Position numbers and translations under genes: made by a program. DNA of 64,000 bases, taken from positions 44,116,861-44,180,860 of the forward strand of contig JAHRHZ010000139.1 in NCBI GenBank assembly GCA_024137785.1, written 5' to 3'. The notes under the pieces are model-generated. The model was not told where the DNA came from. It searched no databases and saw only the letters and a list, made by a program, of their open reading frames with translations. The DNA comes from Ginglymostoma cirratum. Lineage: Eukaryota. How positions within the stretch are numbered: position 1 is the first letter of the stretch; each line of letters begins with the position of its first letter. Of the stretch, positions 9,521 through 61,441 are shown in pieces.

Positions 9521-9616
9521 CCAAAAACAGAAATTGCTGGAAAAACTCAGCAAGTCTGGCAGTATCTGTAGAGAGAAATCAGAGTTAACGTTTTGGGTTG
9601 AGTGACCCTTCCTCAC
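9521..9616 (-). mobile_element. Short Penelope terminal-repeat unit with degenerate hammerhead
   Basis: Matches the PLE tail at 22353-22450. Perfect 12-bp TSD ATCTCAGAGTGA at 9509-9520 and 9617-9628. Confidence 0.8.
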
Positions 9617-10891
9617 ATCTCAGAGTGAACTCAGACTGGCTTGATAGAACATAGTTTTTCAAGTTGGTCAGTTATGGCAGCTACTTGCTGAGTCAAATTC
9701 ACACAAGTTGCAGAGCTTCCTTAACGGTAGAAAAAGAAAAAAAAAGCTAAATAAAGAAAACAGTTAGCAAGGTCTATAAAAAAAATCAGCAAGCAAAGTA
9801 GTTTCAACATTCTCTATCTGAAACAGAGATTTAATTCCAGACGAAATACTCATCTAATTCAACTCTAAGTTTGTGCTTCACTGCCATGTTACAATTTCTG
9901 GAGACAATTCAATGAGTCCTTTCCAAATCTGCTGACATGAGCTTTTCTACAAATATGAGAGGCTAATACTTCTCAATTCTAATAGCCTGTAGCGTTACAA
10001 ACAAACTCTCCTGTTTCGAAAATTTCACGAAGTAAACCCTTCTGGTTCCTTGAACTGCCCTGAAAAGTTCCTTGTAGAAGAAGAGAAACTGTATTTGCAA
10101 AGAAAACTTCACAGAAATAACCAGCACCCATCTGTCTCTACTTTGAAATCCAAATTCCAAAAATAATTGATATAAATTACACACCTCAAATCACACTACC
10201 TCAATTCATACCTGCTTTTGCTGAATAGATGGTATTACCATGTTGCTCACCAGATAAAAACGAATTCCTGTAGCTTTTAATTGCACCTGTAAAGAAGGAA
10301 TCTGCAAACTAAAGAACCACCCTTGCAATGGTGTGTACAATACTGCTTCTCCACTGTGTTTCAGCCTTTGTAAATTACATAGTATTCACGGTAATGGCTC
10401 CTAGCTGCGCTTTAAATTGATTGCACCATATCCCACCACCTCAATGAATCTACTGTTGTCCACAACTAGGCAGTGAATATGCCAGTGGGCTATTACCTTC
10501 ATTAACTGATTAATTAATACTTTCAAATTAATAGTCATGGAGTCATACAGCACAAATGGCCAATATTCAGCAATGGTGCAGGTCTGGGACTCTAAAGTAA
10601 TGCCAACCCTGAATTGCAATTTCAATCAGACAGGTGAGACTATTTAACTCAATGTAAAAGCTTGTGGTGGAATAAACTCCACACTTGCAAAAAATAATTT
10701 TCAGTCCCAGAGAGGATTTATGGAAGTAATTTAGACTTACTAAATCATTTACAGTGACATGACCAAGTCCTAATTCTTTTTTACAAATATGTAACTAGTA
10801 TCTAGAACAAAGAACAAAGAAAATTACAGCACAGGAACAGGCCCTTCGGCCCTCCAAACCTGCGCCGATTGAGATCCTCTGTCTAAACCGG

Positions 10892-13835
10892 TCATCTATT
10901 TTCTAAGGGTCTGTATCCCTTTGCTCCCTGTCCATCCATGTACCTGTCCAGATACATCTTAAAAGACACTAACATGTCTGCGTCTACCACCTCCGCTCGC
11001 AACGTGTTCCAGGCAGCCACCACCCTCTGCGTAAAGAACTTTCCACGCATATCTCCCGTAAACTTTCCTCCTCTCACTTTGAACTCATGACCCCTAGTAA
11101 TTGAGTCCCCCACTCTGGGAAAAAGCTCCTTGCTATCCACCTTGTCTATACCTCTCATGATTTTGTAGACCTCAATCAGGTCCCCCCTTAATCTCTGTTT
11201 TTCTAATGAAAATAATCCTAGTCTACTCAACATTTCTTCACAGTTAGCGCCCTCCATACCAGGCAACATCCTGGTGAACCTCCTCTGCACCCTCTCCAAA
11301 GCATCCACATCCTTTTGGTAATGTGGCGACCAGAATTGTACTCTAAATGTGGCCGAACCAAAGTCTTGTGCAACTGCAACATGACCTGCCAACTCTTGTA
11401 CTCAATACCCCGTCCGATGAAGGAAAGCATGCTGTATGCCTTCTTGACCACTCTATTGACCTGCGTTGCCACCTTCAGGGAACAATGGACCTGAACACCC
11501 AGATCTCTCCTTACATCAATTTTCCCTAGGACTTTTCCATTTACTGTATAGTTTGTTCTTAAATTAGATATTCCAAAATGCATCAGCTCACATTTGCCCA
11601 GATTGAACTCCATCTGCCATTTATCTGCCCAACTATCCAATCTATCTATATTCTGCTGTAATCTCTGACACTGCCCTTCACTATCTGCTACTCCACCAAT
11701 CTTCATGTCATCTGCAAGCTTGCTAACCAGACCACCTATACCTTCCTCCAAATCATTTACGTATATCACAAACAACAGTGGTCCCAGCACAGATCCCTGT
11801 GGAACACCACTGGTCACAGGTCTCCAATTTGAGAAACCCCCTTCCACTACTACTCTCTGTCTCCCGTTGCGTAGCCAGTTTTTTATCCATCTAGCTAGCA
11901 CACCCTGGACCCCATGCGACTTCACTTTCTCCATCAGCCTGTCATGGGGAACTTTATCAAACGCCTTACTGAAGTCTATGTATATGACATCTACAGTCTG
12001 TCGCTCATCAATCAACTCTGTCACGTCCTCAAAGAATTCTATTAAGTTGGTAAGACATGACCTTCCCTGCACAAAACCATGTTGTCTATCACTGATAAGC
12101 CCATTTTCTTCCAAATGGGAATAGATCCTATCCCTCAGTATCTTCTCCAGCAGCTTCCCTACCACTGACATCAGGCTCACCGGTCGATAATTACCTGGGT
12201 TATCCCTGCTACCCTTCTTAAACAAGGGGACAACATTAGCAATTCCCCAGTCCTCCGGGACCTCACCTGTGTTTAAGGATGCTGCAAAGATATCTGTTAA
12301 GGCCCCGGCGATTTCCTCTCTCGCTTCCCTCAATAACCTGGGATAGATCCCATCAGGACCTGGGGACTTGTCCACCTTAATGCCTTTTAGGATACCCAAC
12401 ACTTCCTCCCTCCTTATGCCGACTTGACCTAGAGTAATCAAACATCTATCCCTAACCTCAACATCCGTCATGTCCGTCTCCTTGGTGAATACCGATGCAA
12501 AGTACTCGTTAAGAATGTCACCCATTTTCTCTGACTCAACGCATAACTTTCCTTCTTTGTCCTTAAGTGGGCCAATCCTTTCTCTAGTTACCCTCTTGCT
12601 CTTTATATATGAATAAAAGGCTTTGGGATTTTCCTTAACCATGTTTGCTAAAGATATCTCATGTCCCCTTTTAGCCCTCTTAACTCCTCGTTTCAGATTC
12701 ACCCTACATTCCCGATATTCTTCCAAAGCTTCGTCTGTTTTCAGTCACCTAGACCTTATGTATGCTTCCTTTTCCTCTTAGCTAGTCTCACTATTTCACC
12801 TGTCTTCCATGGTTCCCTAATCTTGCCATTTCTATCCCTCATTTTCACAGGAACATGTCTCTCCTGCACGCTAATCAACCTCTCTTTAAAAGCCTCCCAC
12901 ATAGCACACGTGGATTTACCTTCAAACAGTTTCTCCTCATCTATATTCCCCAGATCCTGCCGAATTTTGGTATAGTTGACCTTCCCCCAGTTTAGAACTC
13001 TTCCTTTAGGACCACACTCATCTTTGTCCATGAGTATTGTAAAACTTACAGATTTGTGGTCACTATTTCCAAAGTAGTCCCCTACTGTAATTTCAACCAC
13101 CTGGCCAGGCTCATTCCCCAACACCAGGTCCAGTATGGCCCCTTCCTGAGTTGAACTACATACATATTGCTCTAGAAAACCCTCCTGGATGCTCCTTACG
13201 AATTCTGCTCCATCTTGACCCTTAACACTAAGTGAATCTCAGTCAATGTTGGGAAAATTAAAATCTCCCATCACCACCACCCTGTTGCTCCGACACCTTT
13301 CCATAATCTGTTTACATATTTGTACCTCTATCTCACGCTCGCTGTTGGGAGGCCTGTAGTACAGCCCCAACGTTGTTACTGCACCCTTCCTATTTCGGGG
13401 TTCTACCCATATTGCCTCACTGCTCGAGTTCTCCATAGTGCCCTCCTTCAGTACAGCTGTGATATCATCTTTGACCAGTAATGCAACTCCTCCACTCCTT
13501 TTACCTCCCTCTCTATCTCGCCTGAAGCATCGTTATCCTGGGACATCTAGTTGCCAATCATGCCCTTCCCTCAACCAAGTCTCAGTAATAGCAATAACAT
13601 CATACTCCCAGGTACCAATCCAAGCCCTAAGTTCATCTGCCTTATCTACTACACTTCTCACGTTAAAACAAATGCACCTCAGACCACCTGTCCCTTTGTG
13701 TTCATCATCTGCTCTCTGCCTACTCTTCCCTTTAGTCTCGCTGACTCCATTATCTAGTTCCTTACAGGCTTTAGTTACTACCTCCTTTCTGTCCAATAAC
13801 CTGTCCAATATATGGTTCCCATCCCCCTGCCACAT
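10892..13835 (-). pseudogene. CR1 ORF2: apurinic endonuclease + reverse transcriptase, disrupted
   Basis: APE motifs FNVRS, IAITETWL, GDFNFP, SDH. RT motifs KSPGPDG, NYRPVSL, QHGF, DFSKAFDKV, GVPQGSVLGP, LADD. Split over ORFs 13533-13835, 13239-13436, 12756-13124, 11227-12726 and 10892-11392. Confidence 0.95.
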
Positions 13836-14760
13836 TAGTTTAAACCCTCCCCCACAGCGTTAGCAAAAGCACCCCCAAGGACATTGGTTCCAGTCTGGCC
13901 CAGGTGTAGACCGTCCAATTTGTAATAGTCCCACCTTCCCCAGAACCGGTCCCAATGTTCCAAAAATCTGAACCCCTCCCTCCTGCACCATCTCTCAAGC
14001 CACGCATTCATCCTGGCTATTCTGTCATTTCTGCTCTGACTAGCACGTGGCACTGGTAGCAATCCTGAGATTACTACCTTCGAGGTCCTACTTTTTAACT
14101 TGGCTCCTAACTCCCTAAATTCTGCTTGTAGGACCTCATCCCGTATTCTACCTATATCATTGGTGCCTATATGCACCACGACAACTGGCTGTTTGCCCTC
14201 CCCCTTCAGAATGTTCTGCAGCCGATTTGAGACATCCCTGACCCGTGCACTTGGGAGGCAACATACCATTCGGAAGTCTCATTTTCGACCACAGAACCAC
14301 CTATCTACTCCCCTTACAATTGAATCCCCAATGACTATAGCCCTTCCACTCTTTTTCCTGCCCTTCTTACAGCAGAGCCAGCCACAGTGCCATGAACCTG
14401 GCTACTGCTGCCTTCCCCTGGTGAGCCATCTCCCCCAACAGTATCCAAAACGGTATACCTGTTTTGGAGGGAGATGACCGCAGGGGAAACCTGCACTGCC
14501 TTCCTGCTCTTTCTCTGCCTTTTGGTCACCCATTCCCTTTCTCCCTCAGCAATCCTAATCTGCGGTGTGACCAATTCGCTAAATGTGCTATCTACGACCC
14601 CCTCAGCATCGCAGATGCTCCAAAGTGAGTCCATCCACAGCTCCAGAGCCGTCATGCGGTCTAACAAGAACTGCAGCTAGACACACTTCCTGCACGTGAA
14701 GGAGTCAGGGACATCAGCCGTGTCCCTGAGCTCCCACATTGAGCAAGAGGAGCATAACAC
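13835..14760 (-). pseudogene. CR1 ORF1: CxxC..CxxC zinc finger, coiled coil and SGNH/GDSL esterase domain
   Basis: CSSCSMWE...CRKC* followed by LLDRMTALE. Esterase blocks VVVHIGTNDIG and DGLHL. Disrupted by a stop and a frameshift. Confidence 0.9.
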
Positions 14761-15385: not shown

Positions 15386-16125
15386 TATCCTTCCACTACT
15401 TTGCTCAATTAAAAGTGTAGGTTCTACTCCAATGAACTGATATCCAACTATCCCCCCAACACATTGTCCCTTTTGACTTCTCTCGCCCATCCTGTGCAAA
15501 ACAGCTTTTATAAATTATGGCCGTTTACTGCTTCAGTAACACTCATGATAATTGATTCGGATAATGATATAATAAAGTAAACAGAATGCAAAAGGAGCAT
15601 GGTTAGCACCATTTCAAATTAAATGCTGAAAATAGGGTAAAGGATCATTGATTCACTCACACAAAAGACCAAATGTACAAGTGATCTGAGGAATCACTTC
15701 ACCCAAGAATTGAACAAAGGAAATGGACATCTGACTAGTCTAGGAAATTTCTGGTATCCATTTAACGAAAAAAGATGGACATTGAGATGTGGGCAGGATG
15801 ACTGGGTAGTTGAAGAAGGGAATGGGGTGGTGAGATATTAAGTTGTGTTGTCACAAAAATAATTATTTGCAGGAGAGTGGTGCACCACCCCTTATGCTCT
15901 GCACATTATAAACTGGATTCAAGGCTTGAATGAAACTGAATTGATCCTTGTGACAGTAGAATTCTGAATCTCTCACTGACAGAAGACCAGTGCTTCATCT
16001 ACAGACAGACAAAATGGAAGAGGTCATAGTACAGAAGAATGAACGGACAGGAAGAATGAGTAAAATACTTATAAGGTGTCTTATGATTTACAGCACTTTC
16101 CATACAATTAATTGTATATAGTGTC

Positions 16126-16745
16126 AGAGATAAAAGGTACTGCAGATGCTGGAGAATCCGAGATAACAAGGCGTGGGGCTGGATGAACACAGCAGGTCAA
16201 GCAGCATCATAGGAGCAGGAAAACTTGACGTTTCGGGCCTAAACCCTTCATCAGAAATGGGGGAGGGGAAGAGGGTTCTGAAATAAATAGGGAGAGGGGG
16301 GAGGCGGATAGAGGATGGATAGAGGAGAGAATAGGTGGAGAGGAGGCAGACAAGTCGAAGAGGCGGGGATGGAGCCAGTAAAGGTGAGTGTAGGTAGGGG
16401 GGTAGGGAGGAGATAGGTCAGTCCAGGGAGGACGGACAGGTCAAGGGGGCAGGATGATGTTAGTAGATAGGAGATGGGGGTGTGGCTTGAGGTGGGAGGA
16501 AGGAATAGGTGAGAGGAAGAACAGGTTAGGGAGGTGGAGAGGGGCTGGGCTGGTTTTGGGATGCGGCTGGGAGGGGAGATTTTGAAGCTTGTGAAATCCA
16601 CATTGATGCCATTGGGCTGCAGGGTTCCCAGGCTGAATATGATTTGCTGTTCCTGCAGCCTTCGGGTGGCATCACTGTGGCACTGCAGGAGGCCCAGGAT
16701 GGACATGTCATCTGAGGAATGGGAGGGGGAGTTCAAAGCAGCCAC
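16126..16745 (-). mobile_element. Penelope-like element 3' fragment (GIY-YIG C-terminus + terminal repeat)
   Basis: LNSPSHSSDDMSILGLLQC...RRLQEQQIIFSLGTLQPNGINVDF is a typical PLE endonuclease C-terminus. It is followed by a pyrimidine-rich UTR and a hammerhead. Confidence 0.9.
16223..16258 (-). ncRNA. Minimal type I hammerhead ribozyme motif
   Basis: AUUU-CUGAUGA-A-GGGU(UUAG)GCCC-GAAAC-GUC^-AAGU. Core intact, stem I AUUU/AAGU, palindromic ACGU stem III. Confidence 0.7.
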
Positions 16746-20532: not shown

Positions 20533-22490
20533 CAGACTTCCAAAAATCCACAAACAGGACTGTCCAGGTAGACCCGTTGTTTCAGCCTGCTTCTGCCCTA
20601 CAGAACTCATCTCTTCATACCTTGACTCGGTCTTTTCTGCCCAGTCCAGTCCCTGCACACATACATCCATGATTCCTCCGACACTTTATGCCAGTTTCGG
20701 AATTTCCAACTTGCAGGCTCCAGCTGACTCCTCTCTACCATAGACGTGAATCCCATTACACGTCCACCCCCACCAGGATGGTCTCTGGGCTCTCCGCTTC
20801 TTCCTGGAGCAAAGGCCTGAACCGTCCCCACCCACCACCATGCTCTTCCACTTGGCCGAGCTCATCCTTATCCTCAACAACTGCTCTTTTAACTCCTCTC
20901 ATTTTCTTCAGGTCAGAGGGATGGCCATGGGTACCCAAATGGGCCCCAGTTGTGCCTGTCTCTTTGTGGGGTATGTGGGACATTCCTTGTTCAAGTCCTA
21001 TTCTGGCCCCCACCTACAACTCTTTCTCTGATATATCGATGATATTGCCAGTGCTGCTTCCCTCTCATCCAGAATTGGAAAAATTCATCAACTTGGCTTC
21101 CAATTTCCACCCGGCCCTCACTTTCACCTGGCCTATCTCTGACTCCTCCCTTCCCTTCATTGACAATTCTGTTTCCATTTCTGGGGATAGACTGGCCACT
21201 AATATCCATTATAAACACACCAACTCCCACAGCTACCTGGACTACACATTCTTGCATCCTGCTTCCTGTAAAGACTCCATTCCATTCTCTCAGTTCCTCC
21301 ATCTCCGTCCCAAATGTTCCGATGAGGCCAACTTCGACAAGGGAGCCTCCAAATGTCCACCTTCTTCCTCAACCGAGGATTCCCTAGCACCGTTGTCGAC
21401 AGGGTCCTCAACTGGTTCCGACCTATCTCCCGCACTCACGCCCTCCCTTCCCTCCTGCAACAGCAATAGGGTTCCCCTTATCCTCACCTACCATCCCACC
21501 AGCATCCACATCCAGAAGATCATCAGGCGCTATTTCCACCAGCAAGATGTTACTACCAAACACGTATTCCCCTCCCCTCCCCTGTCCGCCTTCTGCAGGC
21601 ACCGTTCCCTCCGAGACACCATGGTCCACTCTTCCTTCACTCCCAAAACCCCTGCACAGCACCACGGCACCTTCCCCTGCAACTACTGGAGGTGTAACAC
21701 CTGCCTGTTTACCTCCTCACTCCCCAGTATCGAAGGGCCCAAACACACCTTCCAAGTGAAGCAGCACTTTACCAGCACTTCCCACAATCTAGTCTACTGC
21801 ATTTGCTGCTGACAATGTGGTCTCCTCTACATTGGAGAAACGAAGCATAGACTATGTGACTGCTTCGCAGAACATCTACGTTCTGCCCACAAAAATGACC
21901 CTCCTCTTCCAGTTGCCTGCTATTTTAACACACCACTCTGTTCCCTGGCTAACATCTCAGACTCAGGCTTGCTGCAGTGTTCCAGTGAAGCTCAGCGCAA
22001 GCTGGAAGAACAACACCTCATTTTCAACTTGGGGACACGGCAGCCCTCCGGACTTGATATTGAATTCAATAATTTTAGGGCCTGAACCCATGTCCCATGT
22101 CTTAGCCCCGTACCCTACATACCAGGCCTAGATATCACAGTCTTCCATTACATACTACCTATTGTTAGCCATCAACAGTCCCCTTTAACAGCTATTCACC
22201 CTCCTAGCCAAATCACTATCTGGACAATCCTTTGTCTGTCCAGTTGTTCTTCTCTCTCTTTGGGCTCTATCCCCACTTATCATTTACTGCTTACCCCTGC
22301 CCCCACCCTATCTTCTGCATCCAAACTGACATTTTCCTAGCTACCATTAGTACTGAGGAAGGATAACCAGACCCACAATATTAACTCTGATTTCTCTTCA
22401 CAGATGCTGCCAGTCCTGCTGGGCTTTTTCCAGAAAATTCTATTTTTGTTTCTGATTTACAGCATCCACAGTTCTTTTGGTTTTTATTTA
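20533..22490 (+). mobile_element. Penelope-like element, 5'-truncated (RT + GIY-YIG pseudogene + terminal repeat)
   Basis: LPKIHK..PGRPVVS, GMAMGTQMGPS, YIDD, YKHTNSHSYLDY, CKDSIPFSQF, CNYWRCNTC, NLVYCICC*QCGLLYIGET. Multiple frameshifts. Degenerate hammerhead CTGAGGAAGG at ~22354. Confidence 0.93.
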
Positions 22491-22616
22491 GATGTCAAGA
22501 ATGCCTGACATTAAATTTACTGACCTCCAATAAAGTCCAAGACTCTATCTTGGACACCTCACACCAAAATCTCGGAGTATACCTTCAGGGGCTGCCACCA
22601 CACACATCCCATGTCC

Positions 22617-22763
22617 GGGCCCTTCTTCAGACCCTTTTTCTGAAGAAGGGTCTAGACCCAAAACGTCAGCTTTCCTGCACCTCTGATGCTGCTTGGCCTG
22701 CTGTGTTCATCCAACTCTACACCTTGTTATCTCAGATTCTCCAGCATCAGCAGTTCCTCCTAT
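22617..22763 (+). mobile_element. Short Penelope terminal-repeat unit with short inverted 5' stub
   Basis: CCCTTCTTCAGA..TCTGAAGAAGGG inverted pair. Hammerhead with GAAA changed to AAAA. Flanked by CCATGTCC at 22609-22616 and 22764-22771. Confidence 0.75.
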
Positions 22764-23885
22764 CCATGTCCAAGGGCCTAGGTATTTGACCGTAAGCTTC
22801 TGTTGTTCAATGCTGCACTTTGGAGCACCACACACTGCAACGCTGCCGCAAGGACACTTTGCATGCAAGGACAGGACCAGGGCTGCTTGCTCATTCTGTC
22901 AGTGCTCACTCCGTTATTGCCTCCTTGGATGCTCACAGCATTCCTGCCTTGCCTGGATTTGTACTTTGCCCCCTTCGCCAGACCTAACGAGCTCACAGTA
23001 CTTTTGACATGTCTTGCCTTTCATTACAGACACAAATTCAAGCAGCTTGTCATGGCAGTCGTTGGAGAAGGTAGTGGACAACTTGCTGTATGGCAGTATG
23101 TTATGTCAACATAGTACAATGTGCTAGGAGTGTAAGTGCCAAAGGTACCGCACATGCTTCAAGCAAATGGCATGCCTCAAAGTCTAATGGAAGTAATGCT
23201 CAGCAAGCTGACCTTCAGTTGGGGGGCCCTGTCACAGTAAGTCAAGGGCAGCTTTTGATAGCAATCCAGGACCTTGGGCATGGTCAGTCAGCTGGTCAGG
23301 ATGGTCATGGTCAGGGAGTTCATACTTCTACAGTCCGGGGAGTGGGCATCAGTCAGCTCTGCAAATCCAGTGCTACCAGTCTGGAGCACTGTTTTCTTCC
23401 ATCATGCTACAAACAAGTGTGCAATGGAAAAGCATGTGGTAAAACCAGTAGTGGAGCTGCACAGATATCAGTCGGGAGTCTGGTCATTCATCTTACAGAG
23501 CTGTGTGGCTAAGTCCCGAAAAGGGGAGGGCCTTGGTCAATCCTGGGAGCCCATAAAGGGGGATAATGAGGGGCCACTAGTGAGGGAGGGAAGCTGGAGA
23601 GCTTAATTCTGGGAATTGCAGGCAACATGCTGGGGTGCAGAGGGAATTACTTGTGAATGGGAGCAAAGGAGATGATTCATTGTATTGACTGGGAAGGGAT
23701 AATGCAGGAAGGAATGTCATGAGATGTTAGCTTCCGTGACTTCCATGGGGCGGGGAGCGTTCTATCAAATCTGGCGTAATTACTCATTATGTCTTGGCCT
23801 GGGAACTAAAGTGGGGTATGAAGGTTTAGAGACAGAAACAGAAATTGCTAGCAAAACTCAGCAGATCTGGCAGCATCTGTGGGGA

Positions 23886-24582
23886 TGAGAGGGGGTGCAG
23901 GTCTTGGGATGAGGTTGGGGGTGGGGAGATTTTGAAGCTAGTAAACTCCACATCCCAGGCCCCAAAAACACCTTCCACATCAAACAGATGTTCACCTGCA
24001 CATCCGCAAATGTGGTCTATTGTATCCGCTGTTCCCCATGTGGCCTCTTCTACGTCGGTGAGACCAAGAGGAGGCTCATTGACCGCTTTTAGAGCACCTG
24101 CGCTTGGTTCGCAACAAACGATAACACCTTCCAGTCGCGAACCACTTCAACTCCCCCTCCCATTCCCTGGGCGACACGTCCATCCTGGGCCTCCTCCAGT
24201 GTCACAACGAAGCCACCTGGAAACTGGGAGAACAGCACCTCATGTTCCACCTTGGAAGCCTACAGCCCAATGGTCTCAATGTCGACTTTACTAGCTTCAA
24301 AATCTCCCCACCCCAACCTCATCCCAAGACCAGCACCTACGCACACCCCCATCCCCGCCTCATTGACCTGTCTGTCTTCTCTCCCACCTATCTGCTCCTC
24401 CCACCTCACTGACCAATCCCTACCACTACCTACCTGCTATCACTGCCCCACCCCTCTATTTATTTCAGAGCCCCCTTCCCCTCCCCCATTTCTGAAGAAG
24501 GATCCCGACCCGAAACATTAGCTTTCCTGCTTCTCTGATGCTGCCTGGCTTGCTGTGTTCCTCCAGCTCCAGACTCTGTTAC
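23886..24582 (+). mobile_element. Penelope-like GIY-YIG fragment + terminal repeat with inverted 5' segment
   Basis: FTCTSANVVYCIRCSPCGLFYVGETKRRL is the GIY-YIG motif. 23890-23953 is the reverse complement of ~24279-24345. Preceded by a minus-strand terminal fragment of another PLE family (23832-23885). Confidence 0.88.
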
Positions 24583-26155: not shown

Positions 26156-26302
26156 ACAAAATATTTAAATGTAGTACACATACTAAATATATCAATATCA
26201 GGATATAGAGATAACAAGGTGTAGAGCTGGATGAACACAGCAGGCCAAGCAGCATCAGAAGAGCAGGAAGGCTGACGTTTCGGGCCTAGACCCTTCTTCA
26301 GA

Positions 26303-26402
26303 NNNNNNNNNNNNNNNNNNNNNNNNNNNNNNNNNNNNNNNNNNNNNNNNNNNNNNNNNNNNNNNNNNNNNNNNNNNNNNNNNNNNNNNNNNNNNNNNNN
26401 NN
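26303..26402. other. Assembly gap (100 N)
   Basis: Run of N. Confidence 1.
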
Positions 26403-26736
26403 GAGTCTCTGCGGTGCTCACACCTCACTCTCCCCTCCTTTTCTGCTTTTCAGGCCCCTTCATCAGGCATGGAGTGCATTTGAATGAAAAGCCCCTTTTC
26501 CCCAGTTTCAGAAGCCCACTTTCAAGCTTCCTGCCTGCTGCTGGGTGAATACCAAGGTAAGTGAGATGAGGAAGTGAGATAAAAGTAGCAAAGTGGCATC
26601 ATTTGCAGGCACCATCCTCCCTTTGAGATGCTTTTCCACCGCCAAATCTGCCATACCTGAAGGGATTACATTCCAGAGATAACAAGGTGCAGAGCCGGAT
26701 GAACACAGCAGGCCAAGCAGCATCAGAGGAGCAGGA

Positions 26737-27136
26737 NNNNNNNNNNNNNNNNNNNNNNNNNNNNNNNNNNNNNNNNNNNNNNNNNNNNNNNNNNNNNNNN
26801 NNNNNNNNNNNNNNNNNNNNNNNNNNNNNNNNNNNNNNNNNNNNNNNNNNNNNNNNNNNNNNNNNNNNNNNNNNNNNNNNNNNNNNNNNNNNNNNNNNNN
26901 NNNNNNNNNNNNNNNNNNNNNNNNNNNNNNNNNNNNNNNNNNNNNNNNNNNNNNNNNNNNNNNNNNNNNNNNNNNNNNNNNNNNNNNNNNNNNNNNNNNN
27001 NNNNNNNNNNNNNNNNNNNNNNNNNNNNNNNNNNNNNNNNNNNNNNNNNNNNNNNNNNNNNNNNNNNNNNNNNNNNNNNNNNNNNNNNNNNNNNNNNNNN
27101 NNNNNNNNNNNNNNNNNNNNNNNNNNNNNNNNNNNN
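26737..27136. other. Assembly gap (400 N)
   Basis: Run of N. Confidence 1.
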
Positions 27137-27170
27137 TCTGAAGAAGGGTCTAGGCCCGAAACGTCAGCCT
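27137..27170 (+). ncRNA. Minimal hammerhead ribozyme motif
   Basis: CUGAAGA-A-GGGU(CUAG)GCCC-GAAAC-GUC^AG. The same motif is on the minus strand at ~26272-26301. Confidence 0.65.
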
Positions 27171-27329
27171 TCCTGCTCTTCTGATGCTGCTTGGCCTGCT
27201 GTGTTCATCCAGCTCTACACCTTGTTATCTCAGATTCTCCAGCATCTGCAGTTCCTACTATCTCTGAAACAATATCTGGATATATTTGGGTTTCGGTTGA
27301 TAATTGGCAAGTAAGCTATGTGTTGTATA

Positions 27330-28035: not shown

Positions 28036-28140
28036 ATTAGTTTGAAGAAGTAGCTGTCATATCATGGTGGAAGGAATTCAAAAATGATGTCCATCATGGA
28101 ACATATGGTAACCAATGGAATGTCTACAGGAATTTTTTTT

Positions 28141-36360: not shown

Positions 36361-36368
36361 TCTATGTT

Positions 36369-43558: not shown

Positions 43559-43778
43559 AGAAGTGCTGGAGAAACTCAGCAGGTCTGTCAGCATCTGTGG
43601 AGACAAATACAGAGCTAATATTTCAAGGCCAGTGATCATTTGTCAGGAATGTTCCGAAGAGAAGTGACTGGTCTCAAAAGGTTTGCTCTGTTTCTCTCTA
43701 CGCAGATGCTGCCAGACCTGTTGAGTTTCGCTAACACTTCCTGTTTTTGGTTCAGATTTCCTACATCCGCAGTACTTG
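43559..43778. mobile_element. Head-to-head Penelope terminal-repeat pair (second family)
   Basis: GAAACTCAGCAGGTCTGTCAGCATCTG pairs with CAGATGCTGCCAGACCTGTTGAGTTTC. The centre holds two decayed hammerhead cores. Confidence 0.75.
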
Positions 43779-46667: not shown

Positions 46668-46794
46668 GAGGCTAAGCAACTGCAGATGCTGGAATCCAAG
46701 GTAGACAAACAGGAGGCTGGAAGAACACAGCTGGCCAGGCAGTAGCTTGAGGAAAGAAGCAGTCAACATTTTGGGTATTACCCTTCTTCAGGAC
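46668..46794 (-). mobile_element. Penelope terminal-repeat unit (another family)
   Basis: Minus strand CTGAAGAAGGGTAATACCCAAAATGTTGAC...CCAGCATCTGCAG. Confidence 0.65.
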
Positions 46795-46929
46795 AGGTAA
46801 TACCAAAACATTGACTGTTCCTTTCCAGGAGTTATCTTTAACCAATGTGGATGAGGACAAAGACTGCTGACTGGATGAGCAAACTGACCACAGCACAAGA
46901 AAGTGCAGGAAGCCATCCAAGTTAGAGAT

Positions 46930-48449: not shown

Positions 48450-48640
48450 TGAGTCATAGAGTCAAACAACATGGAAACAGAACCTTCAGTCCAACTCATC
48501 CATGCCAACCAGACATCCCAATCTGACCTAGTCCCATTTGCTCGCATGTGGCCCATATCCTTCTAAACCCTTCCTATTTATATACCCATCCAGATGTCTT
48601 TTAAATGTTGTAATTGTACCAGCCTCCACCACTTGTTCTG
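48450..48640 (-). mobile_element. CR1 3' UTR fragment
   Basis: Near-identical to 42233-42430. Confidence 0.75.
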
Positions 48641-49036
48641 TAAGCTCAGTCAAAAATATTTTATATCCCCTTTGTCCCACCTCTCTCTTGTTTTGGAGGT
48701 TTGCACTGCCCTTGACAGGTTTTGCAGGTAAATATCCAACTGGCCATTCTGGTGATTTACTGGTTGTGGTTAGTAGTTAAAAACCAAAACAAAAGTCATG
48801 GTCATTTGGTGGTCGAAAAACTGTTCTGTTATGTGTGATAGCACTTCTGGGAATAAAGAAGAAAAAAGAACAAAAAGGGAAAAACAGCAGGCCCAGGAAA
48901 GGGTCTGCAGAACTGCCTGTCCCAGGCTGGGACCAGTGTGTTTACACAACAAGTAATTTTTTTTTTTTTGGTATTCAACTATAAATGGTATTCCTTTCCA
49001 ATCAGGCTTCCTGAGTTACAAGATCATTACTGGAGG

Positions 49037-49269: not shown

Positions 49270-50514
49270 GGAGGAACGAATGCTAGCGGTACTCCGCCCC
49301 AACATTCAGCTATCAGTGGTCAGTTTTGTAACAGAAGACAGACCTCACCTAAAGAACTGTGTGTGGCTTTGATCTTCATATCAACAGAAGAATGATTTTC
49401 ATTAGAGGTGAACAGTGTAAGTTCATTAGATTGGATCTTAGGATCTTAGGAGGAGAGTTTCGTCTGTGACAGTCTGAGTTAGTTGGGTCTAAATTCTCTG
49501 GAGTTTTGAAAAATGTTAGGGGATCTTGATGAAATATATATTATTCAAAGGTGCTTGGCTCTGTTAACACTGTGAAGTTGTTTCACTGGATGGCACACTG
49601 GAACATTGGAACACAGAAGAAATTTCTTCACTCGAAACGTTGCAAATATTTGAAAATTCTCTAGGCTAGTTAGCTGTGGATGGTACAATTTGAATTGAAT
49701 AATAATCTGGAATTAATGAGTATAATGACGATCATGAAATCATTGTCGATTGCTGGAGAAAAGCCCTTCTGGTTCACAAGAGTCCTTTAGGGAGGGAAAT
49801 TGCTATCTCAGCTGGTCTGGTCTACACGTGATTCCAGACCCACATCATTGTGGTTGACTTTTAATTGTCCTCTGAGCAATTAGGGATGAGCAATATATGT
49901 TGGTCCAGCCAGTGATGCCTGCATCTCGTAAATGAAATCAATAAAAGGTTGTAGTATAGGGGAGGAGGGTTGAATGGATGTCAGCATGCTGGCTAGCTGT
50001 TTGCATACCACATCTTGGATGAAATGCATTTTTGTAATGACGTTTCATTTTAAAAGTACAGAGGGATGTGAACATTGTATTATTTACATTTTCTGTATTT
50101 TTGATTCTGGACTAAAATGGGGAAAAAGGGTCAGTTTTAAAAAACAAAGACTGGGGACACTTTTTAGAAGCGGGTTACCTGGCACTCACGGTTTACACTT
50201 CGGGCGAGGTTTACTACAAACAAACTAGAACTGTTGGGTGGGAGGGGTGTGTGGGGACGGAATGGTGAATACATATGAAGGAAACTCAGGCAGCAGTGAG
50301 GAGCTGATTGGCCTATAGAATGGTGACCAATTGTTGATGACAAAGGCCTTCTACCTGCTAGCAATTGTGATTGGCTCCCAGGAAGCCTCAAAACTCATGG
50401 GTGTGAATGATTAGTCAGAAACCATCGGATCTCCAGCGAAGAAGGATCTGTCATCTGTATGCAGCAAATGACACTTCAAGCCTAAAGAAAGCCAGTTTAT
50501 TTTATCGTATCTAT

Positions 50515-50945
50515 TCTGAGGAAGGGTCTCTGGACCTGAAACGTTGTAGCATGGTGGCTCAGTCATTAGCACTGCTGCCTCAAAGCACCAGGGATCTGGG
50601 TTCAACTCTACCCTTGGGTGACCGTCTGTGAAGTTTGCGCATTCTCCCCCGTCTGCGCGGGTTTCCTCCAGGTGCCCTGGTTTCCTCTCACAGTCCAAAG
50701 ATGTGCAGGCTAGGTGATTGGCCGTGCTAAAGTGCCACAGTGTGCTAGGATGTGCAGGTTAGTTGGATTAGCCATGGGAAATGCAGGGTTACAGGGCTGG
50801 GGTGGGTCTTGGTAAGCTGAATGACCTGATTCCACACTGTAAGGATTCCATAACTCTGATTTCTCTCCACAGACACAGCCAGACTTGCAGAGATTTTCCA
50901 GCAATTTCTGTTTTTGTCTCAGATTTCCAGTATCCACTGTTCTTT
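50515..50945 (+). mobile_element. Penelope terminal-repeat unit interrupted by a V-SINE (50546-50850)
   Basis: CTGAGGAAGGGTCTCTGGACCTGAAACGTT | HE1-like SINE | TAACTCTGATTTCTCTCCACAG. The uninterrupted form is at 55921-56040. Confidence 0.85.
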
Positions 50946-53099
50946 CCTTTTTTTAATTTTCCCTTATCAGTTGGTGTAAACTGGGTTATTTAACAAATAA
51001 GTTAGAGACATTATAAAAGTGTGAACCAGTGTGCAGGTGGAAGTAACTGGAGAAGGAAGATTGAAGAGCAGGAACTCTTAACAAGCCAAAATGAGCAACT
51101 CAATAAAACCCTGCGGTCAAGGAAGAGTGAACAGCCTTCTCAATCTTTCCCTCCACTCACAACACCTATTTGATTTTTTGTCCATCTGTATACATGGATA
51201 GGAGGGATTGAATGAGGAGATTAGAATTTAACTGAGTAGAGTTATATGTCAACAGTTTCTAATCACATTATAAACTGAGGAATTTTGTGTGCTTTTTTGA
51301 AATCTAACTTTTGTGATCACTGCAGGAATATTAGGGCCTTGTTTCCAGCATTCTACCTCAGTGAGACATAACATGCCCAATTGTGGACTGTTTTCCATCT
51401 GGAATGTGAGACAGCCAGGTATTACCTGGAGATGAAAGTGGATGGCACATCTATCGCATTTGGCTGAGGTGAGAAGTTGTCCCAAGCGAGTGAATAGGCG
51501 GTGCGGAAGGCATGTAGTTATGGATGAAAGCAAGTGAGGGAAGATGTTGTACTCGGTTGTGGTAGTGCACTTTAAAACAAACATTCTTCCTTTTATTAAT
51601 GGCTGCATATAGAGATAAAAACACTCTTACAAATAAACTCTGTAGAATGGAAATGGTAAGTGCTGCATAACTGCAATAAATACTTGAGCCTGGCAGGTTT
51701 ATAGGAGTTCTTTATGTAATCAGGGACAGGCTGGTTACAGGACATCTGAAAAGAGCACGAGTCTTGGCAAAATTATGCTCTCTCAACCACCAAGGGTGCT
51801 GTCAACTAAAGTGATTCTGATAACAATATTTCATACACAAGGAACTGAATCCTGTATTACCCTTACATGGATCACTTCATTCTGTTTACAACTGTTGGAG
51901 ACCGCAATTTCTGCAAAAACTAATCAATGATTTAGCCAGCTCTATAAATTTAAATGAACGTATCCCCTACCAATTTCATTAATAGAAAATGTTACCTATT
52001 TCTCTCACATTGAGATATCTGTGATAACTTCATCAAGAATTGCAAAACACAATCAAGTAAAGTCAATGCATGGCAGAATTTACCTCACATTCAAGACGGA
52101 ACCATTCACTTTACTGTCTTTGGGCTAGGAAGAGAAAAGCTGGTGAGATCTCTGCTTCTGGTGCTGTCGGTAACACCTGCTTCAATGAGTGAAGGATCAA
52201 GTTAGGATGCCACACTCCCAACACCCCCATTGCAAGAAGCCTGTCAATATGCAGTTCTTTAGATTTTAGCAGATTAATACAGAGGGAGGAAAATCAGAGG
52301 TCAAAACAGAACTCTCAGATCAGTGAATGATTCTGCATTTATTAATTTAATGTAATGAATACAGAATGCTTATTTTAAAAAAAGTCAGACACCATGAGCT
52401 TGCAACTTTCCAAGCTGTGCCGTAAGCATTGCTTCAAGCTAGGAGCGCCCACTACAAAATTATTCTAAAAAGCACCCTGTTTTTCTATTTAATCAGGATA
52501 TGTTCCTTTTACACAAATGCTTGGTTGCATACTTTTGTAATCTTTTATTTATTTCAGTTTTATTTGTACAGTCAATAATTTCTGGTTCAGATACATATTC
52601 GCTACTCAGTCCGTAAAATACATCAGATGTCTCTTGTCCATCACGGGTCAACAATCTGATGCTGGCACTGTCAATGCATACAATTCTTTTCAAGGTAATG
52701 AAAACAGGTTCCAATAATACTTTTGAACGTTTGTGCTTCTACAGTGCTCTGTCCAAACTTTTTTCTCAGCTAAGAGCTTCAAAGTGCTCTTCATTCCCTA
52801 CTATTAGCCAATGTCTCAAGGAATGCTAATTTGGTTTCCATTTATTTAAAGAAAATCAACCTAAATTGCTATTTACTGCACTAGGATAATCACTGAACAT
52901 TACCCAGATAACGTACTCATCAGAAGGTGCTGGTCTCTGGTAGATTCCAAAGTGCATACAGTCCAAATGATGTTTCTGTCAGTCCTGCTTTAAATAGGCA
53001 TCCTCAAGTACAAAATAACATACATTGGACTTTAAATTACATCACTGGTGAAATAATGACTCACCCCAATGAGTACCAGCAATATTATTATATAGTCTA

Positions 53100-55900: not shown

Positions 55901-55914
55901 TCAGGTTTGCAGTA

Positions 55915-56040
55915 AAGTTCTCAAGAAGGGTCACTGGACCTGAAACATTAACTCTGATTTCTCTCCACAGATGCCACCAGATCTGCTGAGAATTTCTAGC
56001 AATTTCTGTTTTTGTTTCAGATTTCCAGCATCTGCAATTC
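55915..56040 (+). mobile_element. Penelope terminal-repeat unit
   Basis: AAGAAGGGTCACTGGACCTGAAACATTAACTCTGATTTCTCTCCACAGATGC. Confidence 0.75.
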
Positions 56041-56353: not shown

Positions 56354-57294
56354 TTTTTTTTTGCTGTAAGGCTGGCTGCTGTTCCGATTTCTTATCGTTT
56401 TATATTTATTGCCAGTTTGCACCACATTGGTATTTCACCAGAGTGAGAGTGAAATAGCCATTTACTTTCCGTCCTCATGCAATTCCTGGATTCTGTATTT
56501 ATCAGTTCAGCTTTAGGAGTCATGCCCTTGGTGCTCCTGAGCTTTGGGAAACAGTCCAATCCAAAATTGCAACTACGAACCCCAAACTTAACACTGCTAC
56601 AATAGCGCTGCTATTTAGATTAGAGTTGGGTGAGGAAGTCATAATTACAACAAAACTGCAGGTGAAAAAAGGTGTCTAGTAGAAATCTTGGGGTGGTGAG
56701 CTCAATTGAATTTCTTCCTAAGGGGTGGAATTTTTGTGCCTGTTTGAATCATGTCTGCCTGGAGGCAGGCAACTATACAATATGGTGCTTAACCCTGCAG
56801 GTACCGGGCTGCTGCTTTCTATTCCTGACCATGCTGAATTTTGCAAGGGCAGGGGACAGCAGGGAATTGTAAATGCACGCATTGTTAATTAAACACATTT
56901 GAGGAGCTCAGTAAGAGTTCACCTTCTAACAGCTGAGACTTTTTTTAAGGTGGTGGATGTCTACCAGTAATGTGTAAAACTTATCAGGTCAAGTCTGTTT
57001 GGGACAGGGTCTACAACATTGAAAAAGTTGTGAGATTTTGATAAAAATCCTTCACACAGCAATAACTCTAACATCTTTCCACCCGACCCCAGGTTCCAGT
57101 TTTCCATCTGCCCTGGCCAATGAAGATCAAGATTTCTGTAGTTGTTTTTTAATCTTGTTTCGGGCCAGAATGTGGCCCATTTTCCTGGTATCACACCTCC
57201 ATTCCCATTCCCACCATCCTTCTGGCCATGAATTGCTCAACAATTAACACCCACTCCCCTATATCATCTCCAATCAGACATGACAAAAGTGCTT

Positions 57295-57529
57295 GAGATA
57301 ACACAGTGTAGAGCTGGATGAACACAGCAGGCCAAGCAGCATCAGAGGAGCAGGAAGGCTGACGTTTTGGGCCTAGACCCTTCTTCAGAAAAAAAAAAAA
57401 TTCTGAACAAGTGTCTAAGCCCGAAACGTCAGCCTTCCTGCTCCTCTGATGCTGCTTGGCCTGCTGTGTTCATCCAGCTCTACACCTTGTTATCTCAGAT
57501 TCTTCAGCATCTGCAATTCCTACTATCTC
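57295..57529. mobile_element. Palindromic double-hammerhead Penelope-derived insert
   Basis: Arms of about 95 bp (57295-57390 and 57401-57496) around an A-tract. 14-bp TSD TGAC(A/G)AAAGTGCTT at 57281-57294 and 57530-57543. Confidence 0.88.
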
Positions 57530-58630
57530 TGACGAAAGTGCTTACCAGTTCCTAGTTCAGTCAGGGGCAGGTTTGTGATACAGGAATAAATAAACAAAGA
57601 TATGAGTTCAGAACAAACTATTTGACCCATCAACCCCACTCTGCCATTCATTAAACAAGGAGACCAAAATAGTACACCGTATTCCACGCAGATGTGGTCT
57701 CACCGGTGTCCTGCATAACAGAGGCATAACCTCTTCTGTATACAATTCTCCTCACAATAAATGATAAATTTCCATTCATTTTCCAAACTAGCTGCAGTAC
57801 CTGTAACCTAACCTTCTGTCATTCTAGGACTAGGGCATCCAGATCTCTCTGTATCTCAAAGCTCTGCAATCTCTCACATTTAATTATACCTCTCTCCATA
57901 GGTGCTGCCAGACCTGCCGAGTTTCTCCAACACTTGAACAACATGAGCATTGACAGTCAGTTGGGAGAATCGGCAAAAATCAGAAGAAATTAGATCCTCC
58001 ACAACAAAAAAATCTGATTCTTCAACCAAATTCTGGACAGTCAGACAAGAATCTCACTGGAGAGTGGTGAAAAGCCTCTTTGCACACCATTAGTACCACT
58101 GTGCCTCATTGATATGCATTTTCCTATTCGCCCACAAGCCAGTTAGAAACTAAACAGCAACAATTCCTGACGTGGAAGCCCCAGCAGTTAATTGGCGGAT
58201 CCAGTTGGCTATTGCTTGTCCAGGCATCCATCATGGGCACCAATCTCCACAGGCAGTGACTTTCCAACTGTTCAGCTCTTTGACAGTCATTGGCATCAGA
58301 TGCGTACCAGCCTTATCTCATGGCACATCTCTGACCCATTTACAATAGATTCTGCACTTGAAAGCACACTGCAAGACACAATCACCCTGGCTTCGATGGA
58401 GGAGGGAGTGGTGGAGCACAGAAGGATAGTTGACATGACTAAGATGTGGGGTCTGAGGCTTAAGGGCAAATGTTGGGAGATGAAGGATGTAAATGAAAGG
58501 TGTTTGTGGGGAACATGTGACAGCTCAGTGCTGATGGAGTCAACAGGGAGTGAAAGCAAGAAAAGAAACAAACATTGGTGATTTGGAGTGTTCCTTTGAT
58601 TATCAGGTTGAGCTGCAACCTCCATCATCC

Positions 58631-58723
58631 AGGAAGAAGGTTCCAGATCCGAAACATCAGCTTTCCTGCTCCTCTGATGCTGCTTGGCCGACTGTGTTCA
58701 TCCAGCTCTACACCTTGTTATCT
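58631..58723 (+). mobile_element. Short Penelope terminal-repeat unit, hammerhead degenerate
   Basis: GAAGAAGGTTCCAGATCCGAAACATCAGC...GTTATCT. Confidence 0.75.
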
Positions 58724-59308
58724 ATGACCTACAGCGTTCAAGCTTTCCTTTCTGGGCCATGTCTTCAGTAATAATGGTCAAGCACTACTCCATGAGGGAC
58801 AGTTCCTACCTTGGAACAGTGTGCAACTGGACTATAAGTCTGACAGCAGTGGCGTGAACACCACAATGATATGGTTGTGGTGAATGCTTCTGCCTCTCCT
58901 GGATTGCAATTCCATGTGAAAGACACCAAACAGCCCAGTTGCACAGTTAATTGATTGCAGACCAAAAGATTGTGCAAAAAGCACTGTGAGTCATGTTAGA
59001 CTGAGCAACCATGAATCTCACTCATCAACAGCAACTGAAAATGAGAAAAATTCAACACTCATTAACTTGTGATACGTCTAGTACTGAAATCATGGAGTCT
59101 AATACATTTGTTGCATGGGCAACTTGTATTTTTAATTGTAACATTTATCTTTTTATACACCCCTTTGATTATTTTTCTCTCCATATCAGGTCTGTTCCTA
59201 CTTAAATGTTTTCTTTAAACACACAGTTTAATTCATACTCCATTAATTTCTTAATCTTCAAATTCTCCAAAGCCCCACAGCTCTTTAAAACATGTAAACT
59301 TTGACAGA

Positions 59309-59445
59309 GATAACTAGCGTGGGGCTGGATGAACACAGCAGGTCAAGCAGCATCCTGCTCCTATGATGCTGCTTGACCTGCTGTGTTCATCCAGCCCCAT
59401 GCTTGTTATCTCGGATTCTCCAGCATCTGCAGTACCTTTTATCTC
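59309..59445. mobile_element. Palindromic Penelope-derived insert lacking the hammerheads
   Basis: Inverted arms ~59307-59354 and 59365-59412. Perfect 14-bp TSD TAAACTTTGACAGA at 59295-59308 and 59446-59459. Confidence 0.88.
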
Positions 59446-59689
59446 TAAACTTTGACAGAATTTGGTTTGGTAGCAGGAGGGAAAAAGGAAGTCAATGAGA
59501 AGTAGGAATTGAAGAAAGGTAATGGAGAACAGGTGATGAAATAGACAGGATGAGTGAAGCAAAAGAACTCAAAAGCGGGACGCAAGATGATAGGCCTGTT
59601 AAAATAAATGAATGCGGAAATGAAATGATGCAATTATTAAAAAAGCAAAATCGGACCACAGGCCTCTAAAATTGAAAGATACCCTGTTG

Positions 59690-60020: not shown

Positions 60021-61335
60021 CTTCTCAAGATGAATATTTTTATCCATTGCAGTTAAGGTGCATAAAATTGACAAAATAAACACCAAAAGTTCAGTGCGAG
60101 GATGATATTCAAGCTACGAGATGTGCCAATTCTGTTTATGAAATTGTAGTTGAAGTGAAAGAGGTGGCCTCATTCTGCAAAAACCTCACTTGTGAAGTAG
60201 CAGAGACAAGTCTTCTCCGTTAAAATGTCCAAGCCCAAACGCACACACTGGCTGCATCTTTGAAAGTGGATCTTAAGATAAAGACACGCACAAAAACAAG
60301 AGGAAAGTACCAAATGCATTTCCTGAATCTAGGCTTTTACTGTAACTGTCCAAATCCAGAAAAACTTGGTAAGCCTCTCTAATACCTCAGCCTACTGAGC
60401 ACATTTATATGGGTGATGTGCTCAGGAAGCGTATTCCACGCAATCCAGTCAGTATGTGCAACTGCAGTGATTTTCATTCTAACTTGCGGGATTTTCATAT
60501 TGAAATGAAGCTTTTACAAGGCTGCCTGAGAGTATTTCAGATTTGCCAGGTGATCAAACATAAATCATAATAAACAAAGATCTTGTAAATCAGTGCTCTT
60601 TCAGAATTTGGTCTTCTATTGACACCAAAGTGAGATCACTAGAAAGAGTCCCCTTGCCTTTCAAAGACATCAACATATTTTTGCTTCTGAAGCTCCTTTT
60701 TAATTAAAAAGGCTCCAGGTACTGTGGTTGCAAGTACGCTTTAGATATTGCTTTTGATTCTCAACCCAGAATCCTGTCTCCAATCACTGGCTCCATTTTG
60801 GCTTCAGCAGAATAATTAATGGAAAAAGAAAATCAACTTTACATTTTTGACACAAAACTCAAGGCACTTGTTTTATCCAAATAAGGAACATAGTTAAAGC
60901 AATGGTGCAGTGCAAGGGCTGAGAAATGGTGCTGATCTCCAGCAACATTTGGGAGTTAGCACCAGCTAACGCTATATGGAGAGGTGATTACTTAAAAGCT
61001 GATGCACTCAAAAAAGGTGATAGCTGCATCAAAAATTTGGACCTTAAGAATGATTGCCTATAAAAACGGTACTAAACATTGTACCTTCTACGATATTAAT
61101 GTCAAAGGTTTTTATTAATCTCTACTTTTGGCAAGAGAGTCAAAAGGGAGCTGTTCTGAATGTGAACCAAAAATGTTGAGTCAGACAAATTGAGTCAAAG
61201 GAAATTTTGATTTAGTTTTTCTTGATTGGAATAAAAGAGTGAATAGAGGTAAATTTGATCTCAAGATGAACATAAGGCAGAAAAGGTAACATTTTTCATC
61301 AGATTTCTAAGTAAAGGAGCAAAAACCATTGTTGG

Positions 61336-61441
61336 AAAAAACCTTTTCTGAAGAAGGGTCCAGACCCGAAACGTTAGCTTTCCTGCTCCTCTGATGCTGC
61401 TTGGCCTGCTGTGTTCATCCAGCTCTACACCTTGTTATCTC
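61336..61441 (+). mobile_element. Short Penelope terminal-repeat unit with hammerhead
   Basis: CTGAAGAAGGGTCCAGACCCGAAACGTTAGC. 15-bp near-TSD AAAAA(C/G)CATTGTTGG at 61321-61335 and 61442-61456. Confidence 0.85.

Follow-up and report, generated by a model that had tools for sequence, protein, structure and literature searches.

Short hammerhead-bearing repeats in Ginglymostoma cirratum as probable run-off copies of a Neptune-type Penelope-like element

Penelope-like elements (PLEs) are the closest mobile relatives of telomerase, and their copying and insertion are only partly understood. The window analysed here, a 64,000-nucleotide stretch of Ginglymostoma cirratum DNA (contig JAHRHZ010000139.1, positions 44,116,861 to 44,180,860), contains many short PLE-derived units whose 5′ ends lie at or near a hammerhead ribozyme core. 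Do such units constitute a family of their own, as the first-pass annotation had proposed, or does their common boundary reflect a step in the copying of the parent element? Positions within units are numbered with the C of CUGANGA as 0.

End units in the window

The window contains 22 Penelope-like end units belonging to families A, B and D, in line with the earlier count of more than 15 terminal units from at least three families, and two further family B fragments at 28967-29047 (minus strand, old) and 57890-57935 (plus strand). One of the 22, a divergent unit at 46679-46791 with its core C at 46791, lies on the minus strand together with a short inverted piece (46679-46826) and may represent a fourth family. 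The full core, CUGANGA to GAAAC-GUH, had been ascribed to most units, but it was found in only 6 of the 15 that reach that position.

Six short copies previously listed at 9616, 22638, 28141, 55920, 58631 and 61345 do have the claimed 5′ boundary: they start at +1, -3, -3, -4, +2 and -6 respectively, two just inside the core and all no more than a few bases from it. The family B unit at 9522-9615 (minus strand, +1 to +94) has a degenerate core and a 16 bp target site duplication (TSD) with one mismatch (9505-9520/9613-9628). Family A units were found on the plus strand at 22637-22765 (-3 to +125, within 22609-22771), at 28133-28236 (-3 to +93, intact core, no clear TSD), where the unit follows a run of ten T residues, at 58633-58723 (+2 to +92, broken core, TSD not found) and at 61342-61442 (about -3/-6 to +94, intact core), the last with a 16 bp TSD containing one mismatch (61320-61335/61441-61456). 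The unit at 22637 is preceded by a tiny inverted piece (about 22616-22630) and has an 8 bp direct repeat that is weak as a TSD. Two plus-strand family B units complete this group, one at 55916-56040 (from -4, degenerate core, TSD not found) and one at 50512-50953 that is interrupted, where the hammerhead core ends, by a SINE-like repeat (50546-50849).

All five TSDs noted in the first-pass annotation were present, with lengths of 14-16 bp, but the units at 57295 and 59309 proved to be head-to-head pairs and not single units. Both pairs belong to family A. At 57281-57543, a minus arm (-3 to +94) is separated by an A/T run from a plus arm (-2 to +129), within a 14 bp TSD with one mismatch (57281-57294/57530-57543). 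At 59295-59459 the arms run from +46 to +93 and from +34 to +127 and contain no hammerhead; the 14 bp TSD is exact (59295-59308/59446-59459). An old family B pair at 43561-43777 has arms ending at +84 and +123. The supposed stand-alone copy at 26208-27269 also has its TSD (15 bp, one mismatch, 26193-26207/27270-27284), but it is a composite of 1,060 bp spanning 26193-27284. Its minus arm (26208-26302) ends at +93 and its plus arm (27137-27267) at +129, and between them lie a third fragment (26676-26736), 273 bp occurring once in our genome sample, and 500 N.

Four copies in the window are long. A 5′-truncated family A copy at 16124-16737 (minus strand) consists of the GIY-YIG end, the 3′ UTR and a tail to +129, with a TATA-like box at about 16289-16283 and an intact hammerhead (C at 16254). 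A decayed family B copy at 20700-22486 (plus strand, start approximate) retains the reverse transcriptase (RT) and GIY-YIG region and the tail; its hammerhead at 22353 is degenerate. Truncated family D copies occur at 23965-24581 (plus strand, within 23828-24581), downstream of an inverted GIY-YIG piece and a minus-strand family B fragment (23828-23885), and at 35261-36078 (minus strand), where the GIY-YIG region is present and the hammerhead is partly deleted. None of eight decayed PLE-derived frames from the window matched Pfam, and two other frames tested were part of a LINE. Against Rfam, no hammerhead model matched the window; only hairpin-shaped miRNA models did, below their gathering scores.

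Ends and duplications in a genome sample

Copies were collected from a genome sample of 31 blocks that together hold 1,176,234 non-N bases; the sample included the window, and all-N blocks had been dropped. It yielded 322 units, of which 32 adjoining N gaps or block ends were omitted, leaving 290 for the 5′ end counts. A peak of 106 ends was observed at -7 to -1. Upstream of it, 25 ends lay over -289 to -8 and 38 units were longer; downstream, 39 ends lay at 0 to +9, 35 at +10 to +24, 15 at +25 to +32 and 32 beyond. The peak was present in each family (A, 50/132; B, 45/114; D, 11/44). The 3′ ends were bimodal, with 171 of the 322 near +93 and 126 near +129. This distribution agrees with in vitro work on an anole element, which describes two sites of RT initiation and a tail (PMC11167929, in the sections drawn on here).

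Head-to-head pairs numbered 54. Out of 47 that could be classified, 43 had one end of each kind and none had two tails (p = 1e-9). Such a pair may be equally expected from twin priming or from fold-back of one cDNA. TSDs were detected at 35 of the 54 pairs and at 23 of 88 short single units, as against 0-1 and 2-5, respectively, in five control sets with mismatched flanks, and their length mode was 14-15 bp. The earlier view of the units as PLE ends with minimal hammerheads, each a separate insertion by a PLE enzyme, with a nonrandom 5′ boundary, is borne out.

The junctions of short copies differed from locus to locus. A run of at least four T residues was found at 25 of 57 short junctions and at none of 11 long ones. 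Long copies carried no slippage scar at -4, and there is thus no sign that they pass through the run-off step proposed below.

Full-length and permuted copies

One near-complete copy, at locus L099, reads MDVQSLYT, GVAMG and YVDD, then VYCIRC..IGET, which we take to be an RT together with a C-terminal GIY-YIG domain in one ORF. The endonuclease is preceded by a cysteine linker, CNRRKCYTC, that fits CX2-5CxxC. That linker is given as a feature of Neptune, found likewise in Nematis and Naiad, in the part of PMC8557442 used here. Judged by these motifs, the element is an endonuclease-bearing PLE of the Neptune type. The sample contains 48 GIY-YIG loci, most of which terminate in the end units described above. 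In intact copies the pseudo-LTR carries a minimal type I hammerhead with its core, a stem II of 5-6 bp, a palindromic ACGT and a 4 bp stem I. The long ORF starts near +166, and in some subfamilies the hammerhead ATG opens a frame of 14 codons.

Thirty loci were chosen for the presence of the ORF start. Eleven begin at -6 to -2 (one is the query's own locus and two abut N gaps), and none of the 30 ends between -7 and -94. In six the repeat continues upstream as a partial tandem, with ends scattered from -95 to -427. The motif TATWWAW starts at -35 to -33 in 25 of 33 long copies, a count drawn from related copies, and occurs nowhere else within up to 300 bases upstream of them. In family B only one of four copies has it, and short copies lack the box.

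The evidence for the common start, and for the permuted form described next, comes from family A. In 16 of 57 ORF-bearing loci the order of parts is permuted: a short unit comes after a piece from the ORF side, and that piece starts mostly at the common 5′ point. A single exact duplication of 9-16 bp encloses the whole in 12 of the 16 (controls, 0/80 at 11 bp or more). Nested insertion was considered as the origin of this form, but the ORF followed the short unit in none of the 16, indicating that these loci are not nested insertions. At the joint, a G immediately precedes the unit in 10 of 16 loci (p = 0.003), or in 9 of 15 after one possibly templated case is dropped, and runs of 5-16 A residues are present at four of the 16. 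The G excess comes from loci picked by their ORF; in the random sample a G was seen in 3 of 13, which is background, and in family B, which is decayed, the count is limited to 11 intact junctions. Among 146 random short units one clear permuted case was found. One permuted joint (+406, G, -5) is present in about 50 RNA reads, and contigs of X14 contain more; all of these may be plain genomic copies. Neither the shared start point nor the permuted form is reported in the titles and abstract openings surveyed.

Origin of the boundary and relation to known elements

We conclude, with a probability of roughly 0.7, that the mini-elements are separate insertions of the Neptune-type PLE with the same 5′ edge as its full-length copies, likely produced by run-off cDNA synthesis on the 5′ part of its RNA, and not a family of their own. 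The sequence evidence favours placing the boundary at the 5′ end of the RNA that the element itself produces. In raw RNA reads, however, no site with many molecule starts or ends was seen (X18 is unstranded, X19 comprises 15 reads), which counts against this reading. Capped RNA would start at -5/-4, the first bases of stem I, under the direction of a TATA-like box and an initiator located in the upstream repeat. The enzyme would make target cuts staggered by about 14 bp, and RT would begin within the RNA at +93 or +129. From a start in the 5′ copy, some 100 or 135 bases would bring it to the end of the RNA, with frequent slippage on the U run or copying of the cap. Direct joining of the cDNA would then give a single unit. 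A head-to-head pair would result if it were joined to a second arm, synthesised from the opposite DNA end with use of the other start site, and a permuted copy if synthesis jumped to another element RNA, at its 3′ end or in its interior, and continued there. The putative landing points of such jumps lie at about +620, +750-763 and +1680-1750. Hammerhead cleavage would have no visible role. Such a layout is not universal, since the D. virilis promoter is reported, in the portion of PMC2377424 cited here, to be internal and TATA-less. If the run-off reading is correct, each step is preserved many times over in this genome: the point where RNA begins, a pair of RT start sites of which each DNA end uses one, and jumps of synthesis from one template end to another. 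A lone minimal hammerhead in a vertebrate genome would then not have to mark a retrozyme. The repeats themselves are ordinary by-products of a known element class.

In retroviral minus-strand strong-stop synthesis and in R2 template jumping, cDNA primed near an RNA 5′ end runs off, moves to another RNA end and gains extra bases. It is possible, though we hold it doubtful, that strong-stop cDNA is likewise the normal first step of PLE copying, with a start in the capped leader, run-off and transfer to the RNA 3′ end. Misdirected transfers would then yield permuted copies, correct transfer onto a repeated end would rebuild the pseudo-LTR, and a downstream hammerhead cut could leave about 30 shared bases for transfer. 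The likeness would be functional only: priming here would be by cut target DNA and not by tRNA, and transfer would involve either no homology or 1-3 shared bases. The passages of PMC2377424 relied on here state that pseudo-LTR formation has no obvious mechanism.

Alternatively, the RNA might extend upstream and RT might stall at the hammerhead's 5′ edge, on a bound protein, a C-rich tract or the folded core, with skipping leaving internal deletions that resemble permuted copies. A roadblock of this kind predicts the same peak and a tree in which short and long copies mix, and for tandem read-through RNA it predicts an identical left edge. It is compatible with the RNA data, and some loci (L225, L231 and L237) do have internal deletions of an ordinary kind whose right ends lie in the 3′ UTR. 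However, a stem would halt RT 3′ of itself, at +20 to +32, and just 15 of the 290 ends fall at +25 to +32; family B, which lacks the C tract, has its boundary at the same place; and a stall would not explain why joints carry G or A-runs, or why a TATA-like box lies at the distance of a promoter. The stop at a stem or pyrimidine tract suggested in the first-pass annotation is therefore a poor fit, and we regard a roadblock as unlikely. Less credible still is a boundary set by a splice acceptor or nuclease site. In D. virilis, the intron stops at the 5′ end of helix I, according to the part of PMC4209133 used here, and AG stands at -4/-3 behind pyrimidines in family B and part of D; family A, however, reads AT there, and short copies share no upstream exon.

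The retrozyme-like reading, under which the short units would form a separately mobilised lineage that is transcribed and cleaves itself, could draw on the very high share of short units (146/290 start at -10 to +9), on their own TSDs, on a minimal hammerhead that keeps its stem I pairing while that stem varies among families, and on the proposal, in the portion of 10.64898/2026.07.22.740005 cited, that animal retrozymes derive from PLE repeats. In a tree of 77 short and 48 long copies (94 columns; good support on 9 of 118 branches), however, no short-only clade was observed. The short and long labels changed 37 times, against a mean of 38.1 after shuffling (203 of 500 shuffles were as low), and the well-supported branches alone force at least eight changes. 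Head-to-tail arrays were lacking: the 322 units included one adjacent same-strand pair, from two different families. No pile-up of ends was seen at the cut site, +25 to +32, apart from a mild shoulder in family B (12/114), and the core was intact in 36 of 152 short copies as against 25 of 60 long ones. The absence of the TATA-like box and the locus-specific junctions of short copies also count against this reading. Cofolding of two window units gave no hammerhead fold, a result of little weight. The sole poly(A) run, unstranded, contained mostly element copies embedded in other transcripts. A retrozyme-like family is largely refuted and very improbable. The findings named beforehand as contrary to it divided: short and long copies do mix in the tree, but breakpoints are peaked and not uniform.

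Animal non-LTR retrozymes resemble these units in being small and non-coding, with a type I hammerhead, kinship to PLE repeats and TSDs longer than 4 bp; in the parts of PMC7229834 and 10.64898/2026.07.22.740005 used, they are defined by tandem repeats with at least two hammerheads and by circular RNA. The units here, in contrast, are single or head-to-head, have a minimal and mostly broken hammerhead and form no separate lineage. Closer parallels are found in Neptune-clade PLEs which, in the sections of PMC8557442 and PMC3846280 consulted, share 5′-truncated copies, an inverted 5′ copy, TSDs, a one-sided tail of 30-40 bp, a hammerhead in the pseudo-LTR and, after a cysteine linker, a C-terminal GIY-YIG domain. 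Their 5′ ends are described there as variable truncations, whereas here half cluster at a point common to full-length copies as well, arms are strictly one short and one tailed, and permuted copies have G or A-run joints.

Poseidon PAc of Anolis carolinensis likewise has two internal RT start sites that delimit the tail, just over 100 bases beyond the hammerhead as here; both DNA strands are cut and extended, hammerhead cleavage is unneeded, and shortening the template 5′ end shortens the product (PMC11167929, in part). Its ORF starts inside the hammerhead, unlike the long ORF here, and that part of the paper neither maps the RNA start nor reports a template jump. In Pen1 and Pen3a of A. vaga, a terminal repeat is split from the rest by foreign sequence within one TSD, and template jumps are proposed for other inserts, in the text of PMC3846280 drawn on here. 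In the permuted copies, by contrast, the second template would be the element's own RNA, with the joint fixed at the putative RNA start.

Hammerhead-bearing end units and their parent element

A near-complete copy in the sample (31 blocks of the same genome, window included) carries RT motifs, a CNRRKCYTC linker, a GIY-YIG domain and a pyrimidine-rich 3′ UTR, followed by the end unit. On sequence grounds, the units belong to an endonuclease-bearing Penelope-like element (PLE) of the Neptune type. Full-length copies have a unit at the front too, continuous through its tail into a long ORF starting near +166 (numbered with the first base of the hammerhead core, the C of CUGANGA, as 0). Since the unit stands at both ends, it is both the element's end and the leader of its RNA. 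The N-terminal part of the ORF (loci L182, L201, L207 and L192) contains a run of Ala/Thr/Pro-rich short repeats of copy-variable length ahead of the conserved region, which resembles the low-complexity inserts of rotifer Penelope ORFs. Published work (PMC4209133, PMC8557442, PMC3846280 and PMC6765202) already describes the inverted arms, the tail, the TSD and the minimal hammerheads. The mini-elements are by-products of this known class, and give a useful, testable clue to its mechanism.

The first-pass annotation had reported a dense set of Penelope end units in the window, and this was borne out: 22 units were recovered when 33 long copies served as search references, and other comparisons added two fragments. 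All five TSDs it had named were present (14–16 bp, at most one mismatch each). Of the insertions said to stand alone, two proved to be head-to-head pairs, and a third is a composite with a gap. The six short copies that it placed at or just before the core start between −6 and +2. That most units retain a full core was too strong a statement, because it survives in 6 of the 15 window units reaching that position.

The short copies had also been read tentatively as a retrozyme-like family, which should form its own clades. A tree built from 77 short and 48 long units of families A and D (125 in all; 94 columns, weak overall support) contained 37 short/long label changes against a shuffled mean of 38.1, and 203 of 500 shuffles were as low. 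Its well-supported branches alone force at least eight changes, and one group of identical rows includes both short and long copies. Retrozymes are defined in passages of PMC7229834 and 10.64898/2026.07.22.740005 by tandem arrays and circles; among 322 units no head-to-tail array was found, the one same-strand neighbour pair being of different families. The core is intact in 36/152 short and 25/60 long copies. With a mixed tree and no same-family tandem pair, a separate retrozyme family was rejected on the features tested.

Ends of copies and the shared 5′ boundary

The sample comprises 1,176,234 non-N bases and 322 units, 290 of them readable on the 5′ side. The start falls at −7 to −1 in 106 of the 290, across the next 282 bases upstream in 25 and farther upstream in 38; another 39 begin at 0 to +9 and 82 past +9, including 15 at +25 to +32 around the cut site. 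The peak is at −3 in all three families (A, B and D). Forty of the 82 downstream starts belong to head-to-head pairs and may reflect deletion of the palindrome centre there. At the 3′ side, 171 units end near +93 and 126 near +129. For an anole element, a passage of PMC11167929 describes RT starting at two internal sites bounding the tail, with both DNA strands extended. Head-to-head pairs combined one end of each type in 43 of 47 classifiable cases, and none had two tails. TSDs flanked 35/54 pairs (controls 0–1; modal length in pairs 14–15 bp) and 23/88 short singles (controls 2–5). The pairs may originate by twin priming or fold-back. Many short N gaps lie within or beside pairs, both in the sample and in L211–L240, and pairs are therefore probably undercounted.

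The shared 5′ boundary is likely to be the start of the element RNA. Among 30 loci chosen by their ORF start, 11 begin at −6 to −2 (8/27 without the query's own locus and two gap-adjoining ones), 12 start no earlier than +5, and one adjoins a gap; six have upstream repeat with ends scattered from −95 to −427, and none ends between −7 and −94. The TATA-box consensus TATWWAW begins at −35 to −33 in 25 of 33 long copies, which are mutually related (1/4 in family B). It lies about 30 bases ahead of an A at −4 whose surroundings resemble an initiator. By contrast, the promoter in D. virilis is internal and TATA-less, according to a passage of PMC2377424. A lengthened T run was present at 25/57 short junctions versus 0/11 long copies, and a G directly preceded the templated end at 15/31 junctions (p 0.007), although 12 of the 15 belong to the 18 ORF-picked junctions and the random sample gives 3/13. 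Against this reading, no start site was seen in RNA reads, and long copies had no scar at −4. Stalling of RT at the ribozyme edge within a longer RNA would also account for the 5′-end peak and the tree, but leaves the added bases and the promoter spacing unexplained, and we consider it an improbable origin of the boundary.

Permuted copies

In family A, 16 of 57 ORF-bearing loci had a permuted form, in which an ORF-side piece runs to a variable point and is followed immediately by a unit. The ORF-side piece begins at −5 to +5 in 12/16 and has its right limit at 398 to about 2,500; the unit starts between −5 and −3 and extends to about +93 or +129. A single exact duplication of 9–16 bp surrounds the whole copy in 12/16 (controls 0/80 for duplications of at least 11 bp). 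Of the remaining four, three have N on the left, and no ORF follows the short unit in any of the 16. Thus each permuted copy is one event. Reverse transcription proceeds from the +93/+129 end, which makes the short unit the part copied first. At the joints, G precedes the unit in ten and an A-run of 5–16 bases in four; most of the rest have 1–3 bases in common with the ORF. We infer that RT ran off a capped RNA end and then jumped to another RNA end, some acceptor RNAs presumably ending with an A tail. The inverted arm, where present and mapped, is again of the opposite end type (L188, L194, L222, L227 and L233). Among the paper titles and abstract openings listed in the literature searches, none described this self-jump form. 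Among random short units, 1/146 was clearly permuted.

In separate permuted insertions, the landing points fall into clusters at 619–620 (L222, L233), 748–763 (L218, L226, L227, L239) and 1679–1694 (L234, L240), and RNA reads contain more joints onto about +761. The clusters may mark preferred RNA 3′ ends, within a range limited by the locus selection.

Other sequences in the window

A 273-bp stretch (26403–26675) lying between the two arms of the gapped composite occurs once in the sample, and is either captured DNA or an assembly fault. A LINE on the minus strand (10892–14676) contains two frames, one for RT (Pfam RVT_1, E 1.7e-36) and, upstream of it, one resembling a GDSL esterase (Lipase_GDSL_2, E 5.4e-14), the layout of CR1-type elements. 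One dispersed repeat family (32775–33091, 36370–36687 and 49679–49902) has 61 matches in the sample, and a second (42234–42439 and 48451–48656) has 49. A SINE-like repeat (50546–50849; 80 matches in the sample) interrupts a family B unit just where its hammerhead core ends, within 1–2 bases of the cut site, in a single case.
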